22,737 nucleotides of DNA from a virus. Below the pieces are notes generated by a model, which was not told where the DNA came from, did no database searches, and worked only from the letters and a program-made list of their open reading frames with translations. Below, piece by piece: positions 8,119 to 20,986 of the stretch (position 1 is the first letter of the stretch; each line of letters opens with the position of its first letter). The stretch is from the IMG/VR virus record IMGVR_UViG_3300024433_002526; one strand, 5' to 3'. The translations under genes were made by a program, and so were the position numbers.

Positions 8119-11100
8119 TCAACCTCCCACCAAAATTGCCGGTGCCTGCGGTAGTCCCCCGACCGGTAGCCGTTGCTGCATCTCCAACTTGTTGGCCCTC
8201 TTCCTCGGTGGGATCAGACCGTAGACTGCCCCACACAGAGCGTCGCTCACGTCCTTGGACCCACTGAGCGGCTTGAAGACCTTCTTCGCCGTTATGTCGT
8301 GCGACAGGTGCCTCAGCTCAGTTTCGAGCGGTTCGTACGGGTACGTTCTGATTATCCCGGACTCGTAGACACCCTTCAAGTTTATATACGGATCATCCGA
8401 TTCGTCGACACTCACAAAATCAGCCTCGATGCCCATCTTGTGGAGCTTCTGTACGAAGTGCCTTGACTGGTACTTGTCCAGGGAGACCATCTGGAACGTG
8501 TAATGGTTCCGGTGGAGGTACTCAACGAATTCGATGATCTTGTCGAAGTCCACTTCGCCCCGGCCGTACGGAGGCGGATCGATCCGGAATGCGAAGTCCA
8601 GGTAGGTGAGCGGCATGCCTCCCTGTGGCGGTGTCCACATGTGCACGCACGCGATTCCCACTGAGCAGCCGGTCACCGCAAGGTCGATATGCATGACGCG
8701 CCCAGCCTCTGGGTGCAGCCTCGGCCGATAGTGGTTGAGGTGTGTCTCGAACATGATGTCCTCGCGCACAGCGTCCTGAATGCGGACAGGCGAGTTCGTC
8801 GAGATCACCATGAACTGGGTCTTGAACGGGTGAACCAAGTTCTCGTCGTAGTTGTTGTATATGACTTCCGGCCTGTGGAACAACCCGCTCGCCGCAACCG
8901 TCGCACGCCCAGCGATATTGCGGATGAAGTCTTCGATGTTGTTTTCGGCGTCGGGCTTGTGCTCCAACGGGGCCGTGATCACATTGGCCTCGTCTACCTG
9001 GTCAGCCTCGTCCTCGCCCTCCACGAGAATACGAGGCTCCGCAGTGTCGTCGCCACAGAAGACCCGGAACGTCCTTCCGCTCTTGTATGTGCCCTCGGGC
9101 TGAACGTCCCATATGGCACGAGAAATTACCGCGACACCGTCCTCGTGGCCGTGCTTCGTAATGTGCTCTTCGAGGAAGTCAGTCTGGGCGCGTCGCTGCG
9201 AGAGCAGGCACATGAAGTATGGCGCGGCCGAGCCAGGGCTGGCTACGAACTGGTTGCGGAGGCGTCCTCGGATCGCGCCGTACAGCTTCTGCGCCTGACC
9301 CAGCGATTCCTCTGCATGCGCCCTGCTTCGGCCCTTAGCCGAGCGCATGAAGTTGACCTCGTCGAGAATACCGCCGATGAATGTTTCACCCAGTGCGTGA
9401 AGCTCGGTGGCGCCCTCAACGATCGACACATGGTCCGGAAGGATCAGCTCCTTGCTGCGCTCGCCACTCAGCCGAGAGAACTTCTCCACGAAGTACGGGC
9501 ACTCGTCGATGATCGCCTGGATACGCGAGTGCATGTCGCCGGTCTTGTACTTGAAGATATTGAAGATGCCGTACCGGATGCTCGATCCACGCATCAGACC
9601 AAAGAATCCCTGTGGGTCCCTCAGCAACGAGAGTAGATAGATCCGGTACCCGGCCATGATCGTAGCCAGGGTGGTGTTATGTGTGACTACACAATGGTCT
9701 GTCAGATAGAGACCACCTGGCGCGGACGTTGAGATGCACTGGGTCTCTTCCGCACCGGAGTATTCAACTGATACAATGGCCCTACTTGGAGCGTATCGAG
9801 CCCTCGGCCTGTAGTGGTTCTTCTTTCTAGTGAGCTGGAATGGGCAGAGCCATGATGGGAGTGCCAGCCTCAGCCTATACCGATCTCGACCGGCCGTAGG
9901 ACCAACAAGATATCTGCAAACACCGCCAAGACTTTCGACCAGGAAACGCACATCGGCAGCAAGACGTGGCGACGCAGTCGAATACTCCAGCTTGTTGTTG
10001 CTGTGCTCAACAGAACCGTTTTCAGTATCCATGAGACCCTGCAACAAATACGCCCGTTGCTGTACGCTGCCATAGAGGTAGTCCTTCGGTACTCGCTTCT
10101 CGTGCGCTGGGTGGCACATGTCGAGTGCCTTGAGGGCTTGCATCAACGGATTAGACTTACCACCGCGCGTGCCAGAGGAGAGCGAGTAAGTGTACCGGCC
10201 TTTGTGGTTTGCCTGAACACCAGGAGGTAAGAGAGCCGCCACCCAATGCAGAAGTTCCCTATCAGAGGTCGTCAATATTGGCGTGTTCTGCGTGAGACCG
10301 CCATTACCGATCAACACACCCGCCAGGTATGGGTGAAGCAGGAGATGTCGTTCCGACCACTGTATCGGGTCAGCCACTGGAACGAACCACTTATTCGAGC
10401 CGTCCCTATAGTGTAGGTCCGACGAAAGCTCCCGAAGAGTCTTCGTTCTCAGGGGTCGCCTATAGTGCTTGTCAGACTTCGTGAAGACAGACCAGAGATG
10501 CTCCGCGCCGCACCGAACCACCTGTCCATCAGAGAACGTCACAGTGTAGACGTCACGAGCACCCTGTGGGTAGACACCGGTCACCGGGTAGAAGTAGCCA
10601 TCCCTGCCAGCTACCAGATCATTGGTAGTGATGTCTCCCATCTTCTTCAGGCCGTCGGAAGTGATCAGTTCTGAGGTCAGTGGTTGGTCTTTGCCCCACC
10701 TTGTGGAGCCCGTGAGGACGACCTCGAAGACTCGGTTCTTCGGGTTGAGCAGCCAGCACGCATCCCGGAAGTTGACTGGGTAGAGACCCTCACCGAAGCG
10801 GCCCGCGTAGTATGGGTCAGTGAGAAACTGGCGTGGTGTGACCGGGATGTCCTTGTAGTCCTGTGTGACAATCCCAGCCGCAGTCTCGCTCCAGCCATCA
10901 AGCATCAGCTCGTCAACGATACGAGGAATCGAGTCGCGGAGGTGCTGGAAGTCTTCTGCCCTGACAAGGTTCGCAACCTCGTCGAAGGATGAATAGACCT
11001 TCAGAATCTCTCTGCGGAGATCCGGGTCGAGACCGGCGACAAACTCGTCGTCACCGTTTATGTGAGCCGTCAGTGCCAGCTGGAGGAGATTTCTCTTCTT

Positions 11101-11136
11101 CCCCACTACCGGCCTGTCGACCTCGGGCCTTAACAT
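8119..11136 (-). CDS. terL: Terminase large subunit, intein-containing precursor (1005 aa)
   Basis: Walker A 'GSTRWGK' is interrupted after Lys149 and resumes 'TTLATIMAGY'. Walker B is 'GGILDEVNF'. The C-terminal RNase H-like nuclease region contains 'HIDLAVTG', 'VSLDKYQ' and 'DVSDALCGAVYG'. In the 86-nt overlap with the upstream gene, this frame carries the G/C third-position bias, which supports ATG 11136. Confidence 0.9.
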   Translation of the reverse strand: MLRPEVDRPVVGKKRNLLQLALTAHINGDDEFVAGLDPDLRREILKVYSSFDEVANLVRAEDFQHLRDSIPRIVDELMLDGWSETAAGIVTQDYKDIPVTPRQFLTDPYYAGRFGEGLYPVNFRDACWLLNPKNRVFEVVLTGSTRWGKDQPLTSELITSDGLKKMGDITTNDLVAGRDGYFYPVTGVYPQGARDVYTVTFSDGQVVRCGAEHLWSVFTKSDKHYRRPLRTKTLRELSSDLHYRDGSNKWFVPVADPIQWSERHLLLHPYLAGVLIGNGGLTQNTPILTTSDRELLHWVAALLPPGVQANHKGRYTYSLSSGTRGGKSNPLMQALKALDMCHPAHEKRVPKDYLYGSVQQRAYLLQGLMDTENGSVEHSNNKLEYSTASPRLAADVRFLVESLGGVCRYLVGPTAGRDRYRLRLALPSWLCPFQLTRKKNHYRPRARYAPSRAIVSVEYSGAEETQCISTSAPGGLYLTDHCVVTHNTTLATIMAGYRIYLLSLLRDPQGFFGLMRGSSIRYGIFNIFKYKTGDMHSRIQAIIDECPYFVEKFSRLSGERSKELILPDHVSIVEGATELHALGETFIGGILDEVNFMRSAKGRSRAHAEESLGQAQKLYGAIRGRLRNQFVASPGSAAPYFMCLLSQRRAQTDFLEEHITKHGHEDGVAVISRAIWDVQPEGTYKSGRTFRVFCGDDTAEPRILVEGEDEADQVDEANVITAPLEHKPDAENNIEDFIRNIAGRATVAASGLFHRPEVIYNNYDENLVHPFKTQFMVISTNSPVRIQDAVREDIMFETHLNHYRPRLHPEAGRVMHIDLAVTGCSVGIACVHMWTPPQGGMPLTYLDFAFRIDPPPYGRGEVDFDKIIEFVEYLHRNHYTFQMVSLDKYQSRHFVQKLHKMGIEADFVSVDESDDPYINLKGVYESGIIRTYPYEPLETELRHLSHDITAKKVFKPLSGSKDVSDALCGAVYGLIPPRKRANKLEMQQRLPVGGLPQAPAILVGG
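9676..10689 (-). mobile_element. Intein (~338 aa) with LAGLIDADG homing-endonuclease domain, class 3-like signature
   Basis: Removing residues D150..N487 restores the P-loop G-S-T-R-W-G-K-T. The C-terminal end is 'VVTHN|T' (block G). Two LAGLIDADG-like motifs are present, 'YLAGVLIGNGG' and 'YLLQGLMDTENGS'. There is no Cys/Ser/Thr at intein position 1, and there is Trp in 'AEHLW' (block B), Cys in 'ETQCIS' (block F) and Thr before HN. Codon usage inside is visibly A/T3-richer, with many AGG/AGA codons, than in the flanking extein. Confidence 0.85.
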
Positions 11137-11995
11137 TGATCTGCTCCACTGCTACTTCCCGCTCGACCTTCGACGGTATGTCCGGCCCGTTCTCAGGGCC
11201 GCCGGACAGGAATCCCTGCATGGCTTGGGTGAACTCACTGACCGAAGCGGTCAGGTGATGCCTCCGCTGTTCAACCTGCCTCCGCGCCTCGGTGTCGGTG
11301 CTGTCACCAGACTCGATGGTGCCAGCTGCTACGAAACCCATGCGCACGGTACCGCCGTCACCTTTGGGCGGCTTGGGCGTCGCCTTCTCCACAACCTCAG
11401 CAAGTAATCGTATCGCGTTGGTCGCGTCCTTGATGTGGGCATTGGCGTGCCCCATGAAGTCCCACAGATCGTCGTAGTTGAGTTCCGATGCGTCAGCCAG
11501 CTCGAACATCCTGCGTGACGCTACAGCGCTTGCCTCCATGATCGGACCGATCCTGTGCATCTGGTACGTCAGCAGCATATTCGCCGCCGCACGCAGCAAC
11601 GAAGGGTCCGCGCTGTCGATCTCTATCTGCTGGTTACCGTCGAACCAATCAGGCCAGCGTCCGTTCGTCATGCGGTACATGTACGCACGGTAGATCTGAT
11701 CCCCAGTGACCCGCTTATCGAACGGGATGAAGAACGACTGGCCGGGATACATCTTGTCGTACTCACGCAGCGTCGTCTCGTGATCCTCGCTCAGGTGCTT
11801 CTCGAATTCAGCTATGCCGTTGAGGTGTTTGTGGCACAGCCAGCAGGTACGCACACCGAGCTGCTTCAAGATCTTGGCATCGGGCTGCTTCCTCTTCTTC
11901 GCCTTCTGCTCAAACCAAAGCTCACGCCGCGTTGCCGCCTTCTTCTTGGCAGCCTTCTTCTTCTTCTTGGTTGCAGCCTTCTTCATCTTAGCCAT
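11051..11995 (-). CDS. Lys-rich C2H2 zinc-finger DNA-binding protein (possible small terminase subunit by position)
   Basis: N-terminus 'MAKMKKAATKKKKKAAKKKAAT..KAKKRKQ'. Then 'CWLCHKHLNGIAEFEKHLSEDH', which is C-X2-C-X12-H-X4-H. A helical body follows. It lies directly upstream of terL and overlaps it. No recognisable TerS motif, so the function is inferred from position only. Confidence 0.55.
   Translation of the reverse strand: MAKMKKAATKKKKKAAKKKAATRRELWFEQKAKKRKQPDAKILKQLGVRTCWLCHKHLNGIAEFEKHLSEDHETTLREYDKMYPGQSFFIPFDKRVTGDQIYRAYMYRMTNGRWPDWFDGNQQIEIDSADPSLLRAAANMLLTYQMHRIGPIMEASAVASRRMFELADASELNYDDLWDFMGHANAHIKDATNAIRLLAEVVEKATPKPPKGDGGTVRMGFVAAGTIESGDSTDTEARRQVEQRRHHLTASVSEFTQAMQGFLSGGPENGPDIPSKVEREVAVEQINVKARGRQAGSGEEEKSPPAGTDGSHKR
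11876..11995 (-). repeat. (AAG/GCN)n Lys/Ala-coding low-complexity tract
   Basis: The plus strand shows cttcttcttggcagccttcttcttcttcttggttgcagccttcttcat. A comparable tract lies at 18219..18320. Confidence 0.8.
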
Positions 11996-12389
11996 CAGAG
12001 CGTGGTCTCAGTTCCATAGCCAGGCTGTCCATGAGGCTCTTCATGTTGATGTAGGTCTGTCGGACTTCGGTCTTGCGCATCCCCAGCCTGGTCGCAACCT
12101 GCTCTACCACCCGCTCGATCTTCTCTTTGTCACCCTCGCAGCTGCCCATTGCCGTGTATACCGACACCTGCTTCAGCTTCGTTACGAGATCACGAACAGA
12201 CGGCACCGCGACTGTGCGACCGGAAAAGATCTCGACAAATTTCAGCGCGTCGTCTCCGAAGATGTCGAAGATCTCCGGCAGCGCGTCGAACGGGCACTCC
12301 AACAACACCGCCGCGTGCAGGGCAGTGACGAACCGCTCCCTGTTGCGGTGGAAGATCTCAAACACCTCGTTTGGTATGTGCATGCCCAT
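11988..12389 (-). CDS. Mor-family-like transcriptional activator (HTH), 133 aa
   Basis: I place the start at internal ATG 12389..12387, which overlaps the upstream stop as TAATG. The tracked upstream extension to 12536 is an out-of-frame shadow. 'LKFVEIFSGRTVAVPS...KQVSVYTAMGS...VATRLGMRKTEVRQTYINMK' resembles the Mor pattern (FGG-x-x-hY-h-P ... C-terminal HTH). Confidence 0.4.
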   Translation of the reverse strand: MGMHIPNEVFEIFHRNRERFVTALHAAVLLECPFDALPEIFDIFGDDALKFVEIFSGRTVAVPSVRDLVTKLKQVSVYTAMGSCEGDKEKIERVVEQVATRLGMRKTEVRQTYINMKSLMDSLAMELRPRSDG

Positions 12390-13039
12390 TATGCCACCAA
12401 TGCTTCTGGTCCGTAGGTCACGTCGTAGTAGACCCAACGGTAGAGTATAGTCAGGTAGGTGTACATGAAGCCCGGGTCCCAGTAACCCGTCTCGATGATC
12501 ATCTCTTCTATCGTCCTGGAGTCTGCGTTCCGGCATTCAAGCTCCACGTAGTTACGGCACAGGTCGAAGTCCACGACGTCGAAGCGTGCACGTCCTGCCA
12601 TCTTCTCCGCGATCACATCCTTGTGCCAACCCGCCAGATGCGCGGCCCACAACTTGCCGTGCAGATTCGGCTCCTGCTCGGGCTCGGTGCTCTCGGCGTA
12701 CTTGTCCCGCGAGCGCTCTTCGGCCTGTGTCTTCCGATGGTTGCCGATCAGGAATTGTTGTGTCACAACCCGCACCGACCCCACAAAGAGACTTGGACTG
12801 TCACAAGGGATCTTCCGCTGGGACAGCCTCGACCACAGTTCCAACTGCAGCTCGGCCAGGTGGTCATCGAGATCGAACTCGGAACAGTTGTAGTCCTTAC
12901 CCTTGATGACCGCAGTGACGTAGTGCTTGATCACCGACCAGATCGCAACCCACCGATCCTCGGGCATGCTCGTCTCGTTGCCAGCGGCATACTCACAGTA
13001 CGCGTGGAACGCCGTCATCTTGTAGTCGCTACGCCCCAT
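12389..13039 (-). CDS. Putative sigma-factor-like regulator (216 aa)
   Basis: ATG 13039 is preceded by GGTGG with a 6-nt spacer. There is weak resemblance to sigma region 2 ('DDHLAELQLELWSRL') and to a region 4-type HTH ('HLAGWHKDVIAEKMAGRARFDVV'). The assignment is tentative. Confidence 0.3.
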   Translation of the reverse strand: MGRSDYKMTAFHAYCEYAAGNETSMPEDRWVAIWSVIKHYVTAVIKGKDYNCSEFDLDDHLAELQLELWSRLSQRKIPCDSPSLFVGSVRVVTQQFLIGNHRKTQAEERSRDKYAESTEPEQEPNLHGKLWAAHLAGWHKDVIAEKMAGRARFDVVDFDLCRNYVELECRNADSRTIEEMIIETGYWDPGFMYTYLTILYRWVYYDVTYGPEALVA

Positions 13040-16216: not shown

Positions 16217-17181
16217 CGCAACACCTCGAATGCTTGAACCCATGATCCATACGTGCGGAGGAGAGGATTCATCTCGTACAGCGTCATGAATTGCATCACG
16301 GCCTGCCAGTTGAACACAGGCTGCTGATGCCAGTGCATCCAGACCCAGTTCCGTTCCTCTTCGCCCATCGCGAGGCCAGACCAGAACCAGACAAGCTGGA
16401 TGTTGCGCTCGATCTGCTGTTGTACTTCGGCTTCGAGCAGCGACTGGTACTTCTTCGCCTTGGGGAAGTGCTGCTTCACAGCCTCTACCATCTGCGCCAA
16501 GCTCGGACCCTTCGACTTGTCCATGAGATTGCGCACTCCGCCGGGGCCGAGTCCCTTACAGGGCGACGGGATGTTGTCGGACGAGTCGCCAAGGATGCCC
16601 TTCGCTACGATCACCTCCCAGGGTCCCCAATCACTCCAGTCCCGCCAGTTGTCAGCACCGACGACCAGCTCCTTATTCGTAGAGTAGACCATGCTGTGCT
16701 CACCAAGGATCTGCGCAAAGTCCTTGTCCTCAGACACGACGTACGAGTCGCAGTTATACTGGGCCAACGTGTTTGACAGGTACCAGATCGTGTCGTCTGC
16801 CTCGTGCGGCCCATTGACCACAACCACACCGAAGCTCGGAAGATACTGAAGGAGGATGTCACGCTGGTAGATGTACATCTGCCTGTAGTTCTCAGACTCC
16901 ACGCGGTCCTCTTCGCTCTTGTACTCCTTGCGCTTGTACTCAGGGTAGAGGGCCACTCGGTTGGGATGCTTGTCGAAGTCATGAACCCATAACACGCGTG
17001 ACGGGTTCAGTGTCCTGACGATCGCTGTCAGAGACTGGAGCGATTTCATAGCAGCGCCGATCGGAGCACCGTGCGGACCCGACTCAGCGCCGGGCAGGTG
17101 CATCGATCGATGGAGTATGTACGACCCGTCAATTATGGCTACCCCACCGGGTCGAAGCCGTTGTAAGCCAGCCTTCGGCAT
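16213..17181 (-). CDS. 5'-3' exonuclease / flap endonuclease (FEN, PIN-like plus H3TH)
   Basis: Motifs 'VAIIDGSYILHRS', 'HEADDTIWYLS', 'VVSEDKDFAQIL' and 'GILGDSSDNIPSPCKGLGPGG'. I place the start at ATG 17181; the track's 17196 is a TTG. The gene overlaps the end of the RecA-like gene. Confidence 0.85.
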   Translation of the reverse strand: MPKAGLQRLRPGGVAIIDGSYILHRSMHLPGAESGPHGAPIGAAMKSLQSLTAIVRTLNPSRVLWVHDFDKHPNRVALYPEYKRKEYKSEEDRVESENYRQMYIYQRDILLQYLPSFGVVVVNGPHEADDTIWYLSNTLAQYNCDSYVVSEDKDFAQILGEHSMVYSTNKELVVGADNWRDWSDWGPWEVIVAKGILGDSSDNIPSPCKGLGPGGVRNLMDKSKGPSLAQMVEAVKQHFPKAKKYQSLLEAEVQQQIERNIQLVWFWSGLAMGEEERNWVWMHWHQQPVFNWQAVMQFMTLYEMNPLLRTYGSWVQAFEVLR

Positions 17182-18320
17182 TGGTCCACCATCCAAGCTC
17201 TAACATCGGTTCGCTCGATCAAGAACTGACGGTACGTATTCCAGTAGCACGCCGCAGGCGTTGGCATACGGAACGTGATCACCTTGCCCAGGTTCTGTGC
17301 GTCCTCTTTCCCTGGTGCAGTGACACTGATGTGGCTTGCTCGCTGTGACAAGTACTCAAACATGGCGAAGTCATCGTCGAATCCGCCTTGGAATGTCACA
17401 GGTATCCGCGTCCTTCGGTGCGGCGGGAACGTCTTGTTTTTGCGGGCCACGGCATACGGCATCACACCGTAGCTCGCCTTCGACTCACCATAGACCTGGC
17501 CTCCCGCCTGGACAGCCTGGGCCTCCAAGAACTTCTTTGCGCTGCGGAATTCCATGCGGATCGAAGCATGGAATCTGATGCCCTGCCCAAACGGTGTCGC
17601 GGGCTCGGTGTCCCACTGGTTGAACGTCGCGGACACATGGTTCACGAACACCATGAGAGCGTTGTGCTTCGCGACGAGCCCGGTGATCTCTCGCAGTCCT
17701 TCGCGCACAACACGACCCCCAGAACCCGGTCGGTCGTCCTTGGAGTGTGATGCTCCGATAGTATCCCATGTGATCAGCATGGGCTTGTTGTGCTTCTTCC
17801 CACCCAAGAGGCTCTTGATCCACGCATAGCCGTCCTCGATGAACTCGAACTCAAGGTACTTCACCGCGTGAGTGTCGACACCGATGCGGGCCATGCGTGC
17901 AGGGTCGAGCGTGTACTCAGTAATCCCCATACAGACTTCGCCGCCAACACGCTGAACCTGAGCAGCCAGGTTTTCACAGAACGTGCTCTTTCCTGTGCTG
18001 TACGCTCCGACGACCTCAATGATACGACCGACTGGAACTCCCCAGTTCGTCGCGAGCGTACCGTCAGACGGGCTCGGTATGACCTCCCCGTCCTCGGTGA
18101 CAGTGGTGGGGCCACCCATGATCGCATCGAGCGGAGTACACCCACAGCTGATACGCTCGCGAACAACCGAGTAGAGCTTGGCGGTCCCGAGCACTCCGAC
18201 CGGGACCGCCTGCTCTGCCTTCTTGCCCTTCTGCTTCTTTGCGGCCTGCTTCTTGGTGCTCTTCTTCTTGGCCTTCTTCTTCTTGGGCGTCGTCTTCTTG
18301 GTCTGCCTTTTCGCTACCAT
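17139..18320 (-). CDS. RecA/UvsX-like recombinase with Lys-rich N-terminal tail
   Basis: The RecA core is colinear: 'VGRIIEVVGAYSTGKSTF' (Walker A), 'MLITWDTIGA' (Walker B), 'LMVFVNHV', 'PFGQGIRFHASIRMEFR' and 'VARKNKTFPP'. ATG 18320 has GAGGAG 10 nt upstream. ATG 18344 is an alternative start. The tail is 'VAKRQTKKTTPKKKKAKKKSTKKQAAKKQKGKK'. Confidence 0.85.
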   Translation of the reverse strand: MVAKRQTKKTTPKKKKAKKKSTKKQAAKKQKGKKAEQAVPVGVLGTAKLYSVVRERISCGCTPLDAIMGGPTTVTEDGEVIPSPSDGTLATNWGVPVGRIIEVVGAYSTGKSTFCENLAAQVQRVGGEVCMGITEYTLDPARMARIGVDTHAVKYLEFEFIEDGYAWIKSLLGGKKHNKPMLITWDTIGASHSKDDRPGSGGRVVREGLREITGLVAKHNALMVFVNHVSATFNQWDTEPATPFGQGIRFHASIRMEFRSAKKFLEAQAVQAGGQVYGESKASYGVMPYAVARKNKTFPPHRRTRIPVTFQGGFDDDFAMFEYLSQRASHISVTAPGKEDAQNLGKVITFRMPTPAACYWNTYRQFLIERTDVRAWMVDQCRRLAYNGFDPVG

Positions 18321-18385
18321 GAGTTCCGCACTCCTCGTCCGCATCGGACTTCAAGAAGGCACGTTCGACAGAGCACCGAGCCGTT

Positions 18386-18432: not shown

Positions 18433-20265
18433 CTACTGGGAAAAAGGGGGCTGCTGCCAGTTCGGAGCCGCCATCCCGGCCGGTGCCGGGGCAGGCGCGG
18501 GAGCCGGTACAGCTGCTGGCACCGCCGCAGGAGTCGCGGGCGTTGCAACGGCCTTACACTTCGCGGACTTGTTGAGGTGCGTCGTCAAGCCGCGTTGGCC
18601 GCTGTACTCGTTACCGCAGGCAGGGCATAGGACCTTGTCGGCCTTGGCCTTCCCTTTCGACTTGCCCTTCTTCGCCGGTTCTCCAGCACCATCAGTAGGG
18701 GACGTTGCCACCTGCTGCGGGGCCGGAGCCGGGGGGAAAGGGCTTTGGGGTCCTCCCTGTCCCGGCATCGCCGGAGGCTGAGGGAGAGCGCCAGCCTGAG
18801 GAGCCGGTGCAGGCATGGGCATTGGTGCCGGTGCCCCTGCGGGCATAGGACCAGGAGCCATCATCGGAGCCCCTGGGGGAACAACACCCGGACCCATTGC
18901 TGGCGCCCCTACAGGAGCGCCCGGCACCGCTGGCGGCGCCCACATGTTCTGCTGTGGCTGTGCCAGCATCGGAGCTGGCGTCGGTGCCGGTGCCACGGCA
19001 GCCGGTGCCCCGCCGACCGGGGGCATCATACCCATCGGTCCAACTCCGGCCGGAGCTGCCACCGAGGAACCCACTGGAGCTGGCTGAGGAGCTGACTGCG
19101 GGACCCCGGTGGCAGGCTGTCCGGCCATCGCAGGCATCGGCATTGAGCTTGGGCCACCGACACCCGGTGCGGTGTTCTGGAACTGGTTCGGCGGTCCCAT
19201 CACACCCACTGCAGGAGCTGGAGGCTGAGGTGCGAACTGCTGACCTGCCTGAGGTCCGAACTGCTGTCCCGGCATCCCCATCTGGCCCATCGCGGGTGCG
19301 GCTGCACCATGCGTCTGGCCTACGATGTCGGGAACGGTGAGCTGCAGATTGAGGCCGAGCTGCTCCGGATGGTAGCCTGTCATCTGCAAGCACTGCTGCG
19401 CCAGAGTCTCTGCGATCTTCATCTGGTTCTGGAGCTTCTCGACCGTCGGGATACCGAAGTTCGCGAACGAGTCGAGGTCATGCATGCCGCTGAGAATCTG
19501 CTGCATCGTGTTCGGATCACCGGCGAGCGGACCCTGCATCGTCTGTTGCCATGTGTAACTGTTCTTGCCCTGGAACGACACGGGCTTCTTGACCAGCATG
19601 ATCCAACCTGTCTGAAGGTTGAGGATCGATCCCACGTACGGCATGGACATCAGCTGCACGAGACCCGAGAACACCGAGACGGGCAGGCGCAGGACGTAAG
19701 GCTTGAGCCGCCTGTACAACATGGTGCGGCCCATGTCCTGCGTGTCGTAGATCACCGAGTTGACGTACTGGTAGGAGCGGGGCGTCATGTTGTCGAGGCT
19801 GCCGCCCATGTACTGACTGTACACATCGATCACCTGGCAGATCGGGCACGTGAAACCGTAGTTCGGGTACGACTTCTCCCAGCACGACGAGTGCTGGTTG
19901 CCGAGCAGCTGGTGGTGCGAGCAATGGAACTTCGACCACGCTCCACGCTGTGCAGCCGCGTCGCTCCACGGCGGGAGCACGCGGAACCAGTTGTCACCGG
20001 TCTTGAAGGAGTAGAAGTCTGTGTCCTTCTTCCGCGCCGCGTTCATCGTGCTGATTTCTTCGGCCTGTTTGCGGATGCTCTCCATGTCGACGTCACGAGC
20101 CATGATAGAGTTGACGTCGACACCCGGAGCACCACCCTGGCCGCCCGGCGGCATCGCCGGAGGCTGTGCAGGTGCGAATTGAGCCGCCTGCGGGACGACG
20201 GGTGCCATTCCCGGCTGCCCGGGCATTTGCATTCCCCCGCCAGGCATCATCTGTCCTGGTTGCAT
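18433..20265 (-). CDS. gp32-like ssDNA-binding protein with long P/A/G/M/Q disordered regions and a C-terminal C2HC zinc finger
   Basis: ATG 20265 is preceded by AGGGAGG with a 7-nt spacer. The core (res ~80-300) is colinear with T4 gp32 as I recall it: 'DNWFRVLPPW' vs 'QAVIRFLPS'; His/Cys cluster 'H..C...CPICQ' vs 'H...C...CPVCQ'; 'SYQYVNSVIYD' vs 'SYWANILVVKD'. Low-complexity regions cover res 1-48 and ~318-530. A Lys-rich patch and 'CPACGNEYSGQRGLTTHLNKSAKC' follow. Confidence 0.6.
   Translation of the reverse strand: MQPGQMMPGGGMQMPGQPGMAPVVPQAAQFAPAQPPAMPPGGQGGAPGVDVNSIMARDVDMESIRKQAEEISTMNAARKKDTDFYSFKTGDNWFRVLPPWSDAAAQRGAWSKFHCSHHQLLGNQHSSCWEKSYPNYGFTCPICQVIDVYSQYMGGSLDNMTPRSYQYVNSVIYDTQDMGRTMLYRRLKPYVLRLPVSVFSGLVQLMSMPYVGSILNLQTGWIMLVKKPVSFQGKNSYTWQQTMQGPLAGDPNTMQQILSGMHDLDSFANFGIPTVEKLQNQMKIAETLAQQCLQMTGYHPEQLGLNLQLTVPDIVGQTHGAAAPAMGQMGMPGQQFGPQAGQQFAPQPPAPAVGVMGPPNQFQNTAPGVGGPSSMPMPAMAGQPATGVPQSAPQPAPVGSSVAAPAGVGPMGMMPPVGGAPAAVAPAPTPAPMLAQPQQNMWAPPAVPGAPVGAPAMGPGVVPPGAPMMAPGPMPAGAPAPMPMPAPAPQAGALPQPPAMPGQGGPQSPFPPAPAPQQVATSPTDGAGEPAKKGKSKGKAKADKVLCPACGNEYSGQRGLTTHLNKSAKCKAVATPATPAAVPAAVPAPAPAPAPAGMAAPNWQQPPFSQ
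18676..19314 (-). repeat. Low-complexity coding region (Pro/Ala/Gly/Met/Gln-rich, ~210 aa)
   Basis: Examples are 'PAMGQMGMPGQQFGPQAGQQFAPQPPAPAVGVMGPP...APMPMPAPAPQAGALPQPPAMPGQGG'. It generates several spurious overlapping ORFs in other frames and on the other strand (18692..19393, 18745..19095, 18815..19087, 18897..19340). Confidence 0.85.
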
Positions 20266-20278
20266 CGCTATTACCTCC

Positions 20279-20986
20279 CTAGCCAGTCACCTGGGGTGAT
20301 CGCGGGTCAGACGACTCCCTGATCAGTCCCAATTCGCGCTGGGTCCACACGCTCGCCTGGACGAGCATCTCTGTTTGCATACTGTCGAGCAGGTTCTGCA
20401 GCTGGTAGCCCAGGTACTCCCAGTCATCCTGCAGCTCCTGCAACATCGAGTGCGTCGGGTCATTCCTGATCTGCGCGTCGACCGCGTCGTTCGTCACCTT
20501 GATGCTCTTGTCCTGCATGGACATCTCACCAAGTCTCTGACGGGTCGGCATGTCGAGGTCGCGCTGGCGCATCTTGCGCACACGCTCGACCAGGCGCTGC
20601 ATCTCGGTGGACCACGTACGGTAGAACCGAATGCTCTCCGCGATCCGCACGTACTCCATGACGATCGAACGGATCTCGGTGTTCTGGAACCACGAGATGA
20701 TGTTCACGATCTGCGTGTACATCGGGTTCAGGTACTGCATCGTCTCCAGCAACCGCTGATCGTTCGAGGCCTGTGTCGCCTGGTAGATCTTCTGGATCTT
20801 CGTGTAGAGGTACTGCTGCACGAAGTCGAAGGAAGGCTTGTTCACTGCCTGTCCCTCCACTGGTGGCAGATGCACATACACCTGATCCGGTGTTGGCTGC
20901 GTTCCCCCTTGCGTTGCTGGTGCAGCCTGACCCTGCAACGCACTCTTCTTGACGGCCTTCTTCTTTGCCACTGCTCCTCCTTTCAT
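20279..20986 (-). CDS. Hypothetical helical protein (235 aa) with Lys-rich N-terminus; a recombination mediator or replication accessory role is possible from context only
   Basis: ATG 20986 overlaps the polymerase stop (TGATG). N-terminus 'MKGGAVAKKKAVKK'. The rest is predicted helical, with at most a faint UvsY-like flavour. It lies between the polymerase and SSB genes. Confidence 0.65.
   Translation of the reverse strand: MKGGAVAKKKAVKKSALQGQAAPATQGGTQPTPDQVYVHLPPVEGQAVNKPSFDFVQQYLYTKIQKIYQATQASNDQRLLETMQYLNPMYTQIVNIISWFQNTEIRSIVMEYVRIAESIRFYRTWSTEMQRLVERVRKMRQRDLDMPTRQRLGEMSMQDKSIKVTNDAVDAQIRNDPTHSMLQELQDDWEYLGYQLQNLLDSMQTEMLVQASVWTQRELGLIRESSDPRSPQVTG

Follow-up and report, generated by a model that had tools for sequence, protein, structure and literature searches.

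Two predicted classical-type zinc fingers on an SSB and a terminase-adjacent protein of an uncultured phage lineage

Classical C2H2 zinc fingers are found almost exclusively in eukaryotes; they are scarce in archaea and archaeal viruses and practically absent from bacteria (PMC3541406). The IMG/VR virus record IMGVR_UViG_3300024433_002526, a stretch of 22,737 nucleotides which is referred to in its whole length as the window, raises the question of whether two such fingers are carried by proteins of a phage replication and packaging block and, if so, whether they are copies of a single module. The original prediction, made from the letters of this stretch, located one finger on a protein in the position of the small terminase subunit (TerS) and the other on an SSB, a protein that binds single-stranded DNA. 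We observed that both motifs are located in real minus-strand open reading frames (ORFs). The description of both as C2H2-type holds for finger 1 but not for finger 2, which is a C2HC finger ending in H-X6-C. The two carrier genes and their fingers are as follows:

11051..11995, minus strand: terminase-adjacent ("TerS-position") gene, an ORF of 314 amino acids (aa)
11780..11845, minus strand: finger 1, C51-X2-C54-X12-H67-X4-H72 (C2H2), read as RTC-WL-C-HKHLNGIAEFEK-H-LSED-H
18433..20265, minus strand: gp32-like SSB gene, 610 aa, matching phrog_1192 ("single strand DNA binding protein", E 5.3e-9) over residues 60-280
18556..18627, minus strand: finger 2, C547-X2-C550-X12-H563-X6-C570 (C2HC), read as C-PA-C-GNEYSGQRGLTT-H-LNKSAK-C

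Conservation and class of the two fingers

The strict pattern C-X2-C-X12-H-X3-6-[HC] occurs in only two places in the six frames of the window. When 20 minus-strand ORFs, taken as the proteins of the window, were shuffled 5000 times with their composition preserved, a set contained 0.0038 occurrences on average and two were never obtained. The codons of both fingers were compared with those of L001, a relative which is 71-74% identical, and codons with only synonymous differences were found to outnumber those that change the amino acid (10 against 4 in finger 1 and 10 against 6 in finger 2). Both fingers are therefore under purifying selection and represent a real coding feature.

Homologues of the finger-1 protein were obtained from a word-indexed search (three), from an exhaustive profile search of 1.84 billion representatives (six more) and from related contigs (two more). 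Ten sequences were aligned and L015 was added afterwards, giving 11 lineages with identities down to 21% for the protein and of 43-45% at the nucleotide level. Only 12 columns of the ten-sequence alignment are invariant and four of these are the metal ligands, which were observed to be unchanged in all 11 lineages. The ligands of finger 2 are kept in 9 lineages, consisting of seven aligned SSBs together with L017 and L018, which were read from contigs. The original prediction had staked its fingers on the conservation of the Cys and His positions, and these positions are invariant in every homologue. The hydrophobic residues that it placed at positions 4 and 10 after the second Cys were also found, as L/F in finger 1 and Y/L in finger 2.

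In finger 1, every family member shown has F, L or M at position 10. The loop between the second Cys and the first His consists of 12 residues in 9 lineages and of 13 in 2, and the H-X4-H ending is found in all. The 314-aa protein has two cysteines in all, both inside the CxxC. In the seven aligned SSBs, the invariant residues of finger 2 are the ligands together with K544, V545, P548, G551, Y554, L560, K566 and S567, with the signature KV-x-CP-x-CG-x-x-Y...L-x-x-H-x-x-KS-x-x-C. Y554 and L560 occupy positions 4 and 10; position 4 is C in L017 and F in L018, and position 10 is F in L018. The SSB of P0009 has an X9 loop in its finger, so loop length does not form a deep divide.

The classical ligand pattern C-X2-4-C-X12-H-X3-5-H is matched by finger 1, and finger 2 follows it through C-X2-C-X12-H before ending in X6-Cys. 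Comparison of the finger 1 profile with solved structures gave classical C2H2 fingers only, with E-values of 1.5e-6 for CTCF, 2e-4 for a single stretch of ZNF524 and 4.9e-4 for PATZ1. The finger 2 profile matched Aart, a designed protein with six fingers (1.4e-15), and 1MEY, a consensus finger (9.2e-8), where both E-values are summed over repeated fingers of 9-17 bits each, and the phage consensus kCPgCGkeYSGqrgLkvH was aligned on KCPECGKSFS....L..H. In an AlphaFold2 model of the last 102 residues of the SSB, a beta-beta-alpha fold was predicted over finger 2 (strands 36-38 and 45-47, helix 48-58) with a predicted local distance difference test (pLDDT) score of ~85, and the top Foldseek matches of this model were nearly all C2H2 fingers at 0.5-2 A root-mean-square deviation. 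The presence of only classical fingers among the PDB matches and the predicted fold of finger 2 support the assignment of both fingers to the classical (eukaryote-spaced) beta-beta-alpha C2H2/C2HC superfamily. They also differ, as had been predicted, from the bacterial Ros/MucR type (C-X2-C-X9-H-X3-4-H in a globular domain of ~58 residues, PF05443): the loops are X12 or X13, with X9 only in the P0009 SSB, and the matches to ROS_MUCR were all sub-threshold (E 0.01-0.16; 12.5 bits, where the cut-off is 25.4).

Whole-protein scans with Pfam and PHROG gave no C2H2 family, and sub-threshold C2H2 matches came only from the excised fingers. Among the SSB fingers, zf-C2H2_4 and zf-BED were matched by 7/7, zf-C2H2 by 5/7 and ZNF512_C2HC by 4/7. 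For finger 1, the matches were to DUF629 (5/10), zf-C2H2_2 (4/10) and zf-C2H2 (3/10), and also to ZNF451, zf-C2H2_jaz and models of unknown function; the finger 1 of the window gave no C2H2 model above 13 bits. The best E-value among the homologues was 4.7e-5. There was also a Pfam match to the "Phage FDXHR zinc binding domain" (E 0.006), on which the literature gave no result.

The two motifs might also be chance arrangements of Cys and His without metal binding, as the curated Pfam thresholds were all unreached and metal binding is a prediction from sequence. This explanation is scarcely credible, given that two motifs were observed against 0.0038 expected, that no ligand changes in the 9 and 11 lineages, whose identities are 21-50%, that the profile matches to solved fingers are significant and that the beta-beta-alpha prediction is a confident one. 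Both motifs are probably real zinc fingers.

When compared with the classical fingers of eukaryotes (TFIIIA, Zif268 and CTCF; PF00096 and PF13894), the phage fingers have the same C-X2-C-X12-H arrangement and the two core hydrophobic residues. Finger 2 also has the KCPxCGKxYS...L..H signature, and the H-X4-H of finger 1 is found in some CTCF fingers. They differ in being single rather than arrayed, in being carried by an SSB and a terminase-adjacent protein and in scoring below the Pfam cut-offs, while finger 2 ends in X6-Cys with Gly at base-reading positions and finger 1 has an acidic helix. A single C2H2 finger is also found in AFV1p06 of an archaeal virus, for which DNA binding was reported by the authors (PMC3541406). 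AFV1p06 resembles the phage fingers as a single classical-fold finger from a virus of a prokaryote, but is set apart by its description as a small stand-alone protein of a crenarchaeal virus, whereas the phage fingers are domains of large proteins for replication and packaging in a tailed phage whose portal is of the T4 type. C2HC ligands or an H-X4/5-H ending are likewise found in the UBZ4 (Rad18/WRNIP1), ZNF512 C2HC, Rei1/REH1/ZNF622 and JAZ fingers, which make protein or RNA contacts. Matches to such fingers were seen for ZNF512_C2HC (4/7 SSB fingers), for REH1 (E 0.03) and, in the Foldseek list, for the UBZ fingers of WRNIP1 and TAX1BP1, but every one of them was below significance and membership is not established.

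Relationship between the two fingers

According to the original prediction, the two fingers are copies of one cassette, a basic tail plus a single finger, which was shuffled between a packaging and a replication protein and tethers both to DNA or to a common partner. The C-X2-C-X12-H arrangement and the two hydrophobic positions are indeed common to both fingers, a Lys-rich stretch precedes each of them in the window and a profile-profile comparison of the fingers exceeds noise (probability 74%, E 2.7e-5). However, this comparison gave an identity of 19% over 27 columns, and the similarity appears to be that of the shared superfamily pattern and nothing closer. The alignment of the two modules at the nucleotide and protein level, which had been suggested as a check of common origin, gave no detectable relationship in DNA (62/162 columns identical) and no match in BLASTP. 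The last ligand and its spacing are also unlike (H-X4-H in finger 1 against H-X6-C in finger 2). The seven residues before the first His, which form the canonical reading helix, carry a net charge of -3 to +1 in the 11 lineages of the finger-1 family and of +1 to +3 in the SSB family, and the whole SSB finger is at net +2 to +5 in every lineage. These opposite charges argue against a common partner.

Both genes are present on one contig in six lineages (the window, L001, L002, L008, L017 and L018), and each finger was found on its own protein in 6/6. A third real gene with the motif was not found in the loci examined of these six lineages. A word-indexed search with a 45-residue profile of finger 2 gave nothing meaningful, but it also missed the source SSBs and is thus uninformative on other carriers.

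The basic half of the proposed cassette was followed through both families. Its two tracts in the window are:

11864..11995, minus strand: Lys-rich N-terminal tail of the terminase-adjacent protein, residues 1-44 (MAKMKKAATKKKKKAAKKK...QKAKKRKQPDAKILK), read from sequence
18634..18672, minus strand: Lys-rich tract before finger 2, residues 532-544 (KKGKSKGKAKADK), read from sequence

A Lys/Arg-rich N-tail was observed in 9/10 aligned members of the finger-1 family, and near-identical genomes differ in the length of this tail by one Lys. The tract before finger 2 is present in the window, P0005, L001 and P0008 but absent from P0006, P0007, P0009, L017 and L018, so that the Lys-rich segment reported before each finger is true of the window and is missing before the SSB finger in 5/9 lineages. 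Lys-rich N-tails were also found on two finger-less proteins, the UvsX-like recombinase (17139..18344, minus strand; KRQTKKTTPKKKKAKKKSTKKQAAKKQKGKK), where the tail is present in L001 too, and the 235-aa protein beside the SSB (20279..20986, minus strand; MKGGAVAKKKAVKK). Since such tails occur without a finger and the tract is missing in five of the nine lineages, they look like a general trait of the DNA-handling proteins of this phage and not half of a cassette.

A basic stretch followed by one finger, as seen in the finger-1 protein and in the SSB of the window, is also known from the GAGA factor and from Ros/MucR. Ros/MucR proteins differ from the phage fingers in their C-X2-C-X9-H spacing and larger globular domain. 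The GAGA factor reads bases with a basic helix, whereas the helix of finger 1 is acidic and the basic tract before finger 2 is not conserved. A GAGA-type unit, with a conserved basic region and a basic reading helix, was thus not found in either family: the helix of finger 1 has a net charge of -3 to +1, and finger 2 lacks the tract in 5/9 lineages and has Gly at helix positions -1 and 3.

A single shuffled cassette is therefore very unlikely, and the independence of the two fingers is highly probable. They appear to be two separate old acquisitions, each long fixed on its own protein and vertically inherited, rather than copies of one mobile module.

The carrier proteins and their possible functions

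The explanation towards which we lean is that of two genuine zinc-coordinating single fingers that were fixed separately, with finger 2 as a docking element of the SSB and finger 1 as the head of a likely small terminase. The analysis shows the motifs and their conservation, the similarity to the superfamily, the fold predicted for finger 2, the independence of the two fingers and the order of the genes, and from these we infer zinc binding, the TerS identity and both functions. The parts of the SSB that bear on this explanation are:

19837..19926, minus strand: putative core zinc site with H114/H117, C128, C140 and C143, invariant in the seven-sequence alignment
18676..19305, minus strand: low-complexity linker of ~210 residues from the SSB core to finger 2 (P 28%, A 20%, G 15%, Q 10%, M 9%)
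18436..18477, minus strand: C-terminal tip (GMAAPNWQQPPFSQ), with G597, M598, P601, W603, Q604 and P607 invariant in seven sequences

The SSB gene is located between the gene of the UvsX-like recombinase and the 235-aa ORF, which adjoins the gene of a family A polymerase. The zinc ligands of T4 gp32 are His64, Cys77, Cys87 and Cys90 (PMC3012046), and the core site of the phage SSB is likely to be their counterpart, as judged from pattern and position rather than from a direct alignment with T4. PDB searches with the SSB core or with the whole SSB alignment did not reach T4 gp32 and isolated phages were likewise unmatched, because the core is too diverged. The SSB is assigned to the gp32 type by its PHROG match and by the invariant H...C...C-x-x-C core site.

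The linker is full of indels and barely alignable among homologues while finger 2 stays fixed. Both this linker and an N-terminal part of ~50 low-complexity residues (20120..20265, minus strand) greatly exceed the length of the linkers in T4 gp32 and E. coli SSB, and both vary among relatives by indels. Finger 2 is located on the SSB as predicted, but it lies after this linker and ~40 residues short of the C-terminus rather than at the terminus itself. The tip that follows has the consensus GMAAPNW...PF and is non-acidic; in L017, a Cys-rich tail (MSCLGNYAPGNMLCANCTASAEC) is found at the place of the tip. With finger 2 included, the last 90 residues contain 11 K+R against 4 D+E, and the acidic C-terminal partner-binding tail of the gp32 type was not found in them. 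In T4 gp32, the acidic C-terminal A-domain recruits gp59, gp61 and RNase H (PMC3012046). The two proteins are alike in having an OB-type core, a His/Cys3 zinc site and a C-terminal region apart from the core. They differ in that the gp32 tail is acidic and has no finger, whereas the phage SSB has a long linker rich in Pro and Ala, a C2HC finger that is basic and a conserved tip that is not acidic.

Finger 2 is net basic, has a conserved Arg in its predicted helix and is placed at the end of a ~210-residue, presumably flexible linker on a gp32-type SSB. It might serve as a tethered docking element that holds the SSB to duplex or junction DNA by the coated strand, or to replication or recombination partners. 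Finger 2 and the GMAAPNW...PF tip would then take over the role of the missing acidic tail. For the finger-1 protein, the Lys tail would give non-specific affinity for DNA, a part assigned to the tail since the helix of finger 1 is acidic to neutral. Finger 1 and its E-Y-x-K-x-Y-P extension may form a small zinc-stabilised domain which positions the Lys tail or contacts a protein partner, and which would replace the helix-turn-helix domain of typical (oligomeric) small terminases. Each of these specific functional readings is tentative. A bolder form of them is improbable: in it, the near-universal acidic tail of the SSB is replaced by a tethered basic C2HC finger that clamps duplex or junction DNA or recruits the replisome, and the small terminase shows a ring of Lys-tailed single C2H2 fingers with no helix-turn-helix.

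The same features can be explained if both fingers are protein-protein or purely structural zinc staples without nucleic-acid contact and the Lys tracts are an unrelated general feature. Finger 2 would then be a partner-docking knob on the SSB tail, and finger 1 would contact either the large terminase or adjoining subunits. The helix of finger 1, at net -3 to +1 in 11 lineages, and the conserved Gly residues that finger 2 has at its canonical base-reading positions (-1 and 3) point in this direction, as do the weak matches to non-DNA fingers (REH1/ZNF622 at E 0.03, zf-C2H2_jaz and zf-C2H2_2). Dimerisation through single C2H2 fingers is documented (PMC12774644), and the C-terminal tail of the T4 SSB is a hub for partners (PMC3012046). 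However, the net charge of +2 to +5 in finger 2 of every lineage and its conserved helix Arg are suited to nucleic acid, both carrier proteins work on DNA and there is no candidate partner. We regard staples of this kind as rather unlikely, and return to finger 1 as the head of a likely small terminase. The features that bear on it are:

11744..11779, minus strand: extension after finger 1, residues 73-84 (E-T-T-L-x-E-Y-x-K-hydrophobic-Y-P), from the alignment
8119..11136, minus strand: presumed large terminase with a LAGLIDADG intein, directly downstream of the finger-1 gene with an overlap of ~56-86 nt that depends on the start codon

Besides the Lys-rich N-tail and the single C2H2 finger, the 314-aa protein has long predicted helices and two further conserved elements, a GxWPDWFDG region and a PPSQ motif at the C-terminus. 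Whole-protein scans gave no Pfam or PHROG family for it. In the extension, E78 and P84 are invariant and Y79 and K81 nearly so in the ten-sequence alignment. The unit of a finger plus "EYxK" was also found in the repeats of the multi-C2H2 protein P0023, which scores 37.6 bits with zf-C2H2_4 (cut-off 27) and matches the finger-1 family profile at E 8e-4. Two other profile hits, P0019 and P0022, were rejected as bacterial surface-repeat proteins with a chance match to "NGxW.DG".

The window, L001, L002, L017 and L018 all have the finger-1 gene immediately upstream of the large-terminase-position gene, after which comes the portal gene; in L008 and L016 it is directly upstream of a gene cut by the contig end. 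The presumed large terminase has 1005 aa in its longest ORF and 995 aa as called in relatives. It matches phrog_19299, phrog_15 and phrog_36964 ("terminase large subunit"), but all the PHROG matches fall on residues 135-408, the putative intein region, which also matches DnaC-like, primase and helicase families and contains PF14528 LAGLIDADG_3 on residues 360-405. The large-terminase label is thus based mainly on the place of the gene before the portal gene. The intein insert was also seen in L002 and L018 (1009 aa), but the homologues in L001 (656 aa) and L017 (670 aa) lack it.

The packaging protein of the original prediction is accordingly a label given by gene position, upstream of the large-terminase-position gene, with no homology to TerS. 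On this basis, the chances of the finger-1 protein being the small terminase are about even. It could instead belong to the late or packaging module as a regulator that binds DNA or as a protein that condenses it, in which case the Lys tail and finger would be its DNA-binding head. Such a role would suit the missing homology to any TerS family, the length of 250-320 aa which exceeds most small terminases, the two intervening genes in L010 and upstream neighbours that may be transcription factors (Sigma70_ECF, E 0.001; a single ORF of matching size in L017). The adjacency seen in the five lineages, and to the truncated gene in L008 and L016, speaks against it, and no other small-terminase candidate was recognised in the gene block examined. 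The long helices of a low-confidence model of the 314-aa protein (131-168, 174-205 and 233-263) would also fit an oligomerisation region as in TerS. A regulator or DNA-condensing protein is unlikely.

Several observations weigh against the favoured explanation of an SSB docking finger and a terminase head. No Pfam C2H2 model was reached at its gathering score by the sequences of the window (15-17 bits against 25-27), with 15.0-16.7 bits for zf-C2H2_4 (cut-off 27) and 12.7 bits for zf-C2H2 (cut-off 25.2). Every Foldseek E-value of the finger-2 model was at least 0.6, as expected for a domain of ~25 residues. The full-length AlphaFold2 model of the 314-aa protein, made from four sequences, is poor (pLDDT 41), so the fold of finger 1 rests on sequence only; a helix at 61-70 of this model (pLDDT ~40) is at the place expected for the finger. 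In finger 2, the Gly conserved at positions -1 and 3 of the helix is against base-specific reading, and a lone classical finger rarely binds DNA. The finger-1 family could not be linked to any known small terminase through Pfam, PHROG or profile-profile matches, and a comparison by hhalign with gp16, the TerS of a T4-like cyanophage, gave a probability of 0.1%. In L010, two genes lie between the finger-1 gene and the large-terminase-position gene. The known lineages number about a dozen and every one of them is metagenomic.

Our literature searches gave no report of a phage whose small terminase or SSB carries a C2H2 finger. Likewise, no description was found, for gp32-type or bacterial SSBs, of a protein in which a core zinc site is combined with a linker that is long and disordered, a C2HC finger of basic charge and a tip that is not acidic. 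As far as these searches reach, it is the domain architecture which is new, the fold itself being very well known. Two probable classical fingers have become fixed in core proteins of replication and packaging throughout a rare phage clade, where purifying selection has kept them down to a protein identity of 21%. If finger 2 replaces the acidic tail, the phage SSB would provide a natural experiment on how SSB tails organise replisomes, and the terminase-adjacent family could represent a new DNA-recognition head for small terminases. If both the tail replacement and the TerS finger ring are true, they would be two undescribed solutions to textbook phage functions, and these "eukaryotic" fingers would be long-standing in bacterial viruses, which bears on the origin of the fold. 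As the finding extends a well-known fold and its functions are inferred, its importance is moderate.

The gene block and its relatives

The window has a G+C content of 59%, and the recognised genes, all of them minus-strand, make up a block for the replication and packaging of a phage. In addition to the genes listed above, the block contains:

20986..22698, minus strand: family A DNA polymerase; the gene continues past the right edge of the window
20279..20986, minus strand: 235-aa ORF without a finger, between the SSB gene and the polymerase gene
17139..18344, minus strand: UvsX/RecA-like recombinase gene, which adjoins the SSB gene
Minus strand: 5'-3' exonuclease, a SbcD-like and SbcC-like pair and two small ORFs
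Minus strand: T4-type portal (PF07230, E 6e-37)

The portals of isolated phages share only 22-25% identity with this one, which suggests that the lineage is deep and uncultured. When 50,697 isolated phages were searched by tblastn with the finger-1 protein, with the SSB core and with each of the two finger segments, nothing beyond noise was matched. Scans of IMG/VR and JGI metagenomes gave only near-identical copies and one short contig, and a scan of GTDB genomes gave no match. The window thus appears to belong to a deep, uncultured, rare, high-GC phage lineage with a T4-type portal. Both fingers are present in L018 (NCBI GCA_040961665.1, contig JBFOMY010000180.1), a contig of 151,933 bp within a deposited metagenome-assembled genome. 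This contig might be the nearly complete genome of a member of the phage group, and the surrounding metagenome-assembled genome is a possible route to host assignment.

Two conserved ORFs without a family, of 133 aa (11988..12389, minus strand) and 216 aa (12389..13039, minus strand), are located between the SbcC-like and finger-1 genes. In L017, one ORF of 346 aa is found in their place and, by size alone, might be a fusion of the two. The L018 counterpart of the 216-aa ORF has a weak Sigma70_ECF match (E 0.001; 19.4 bits against a cut-off of 21.1), and a BLASTP comparison of the 216-aa ORF with gp55 gave no match. The 133-aa and 216-aa ORFs may represent a split late sigma-like factor.

In L001, L002, L008 and L018, the polymerase is ~930 aa long and has an N-terminal domain of the uracil-DNA-glycosylase family (PF03167 + PF00476). 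A 159-aa gene (5787..6266, minus strand) lies right after the portal gene, and its relatives give weak matches of the HU/IHF type (PF00216, PF18291). At the left edge, an open frame of 825 codons (1..2476, minus strand) continues past the end of the window. Its counterpart in L002 and L005 is an 895-aa protein with the shoulder domain of the major vault protein (PF11978), which is unusual in a phage.

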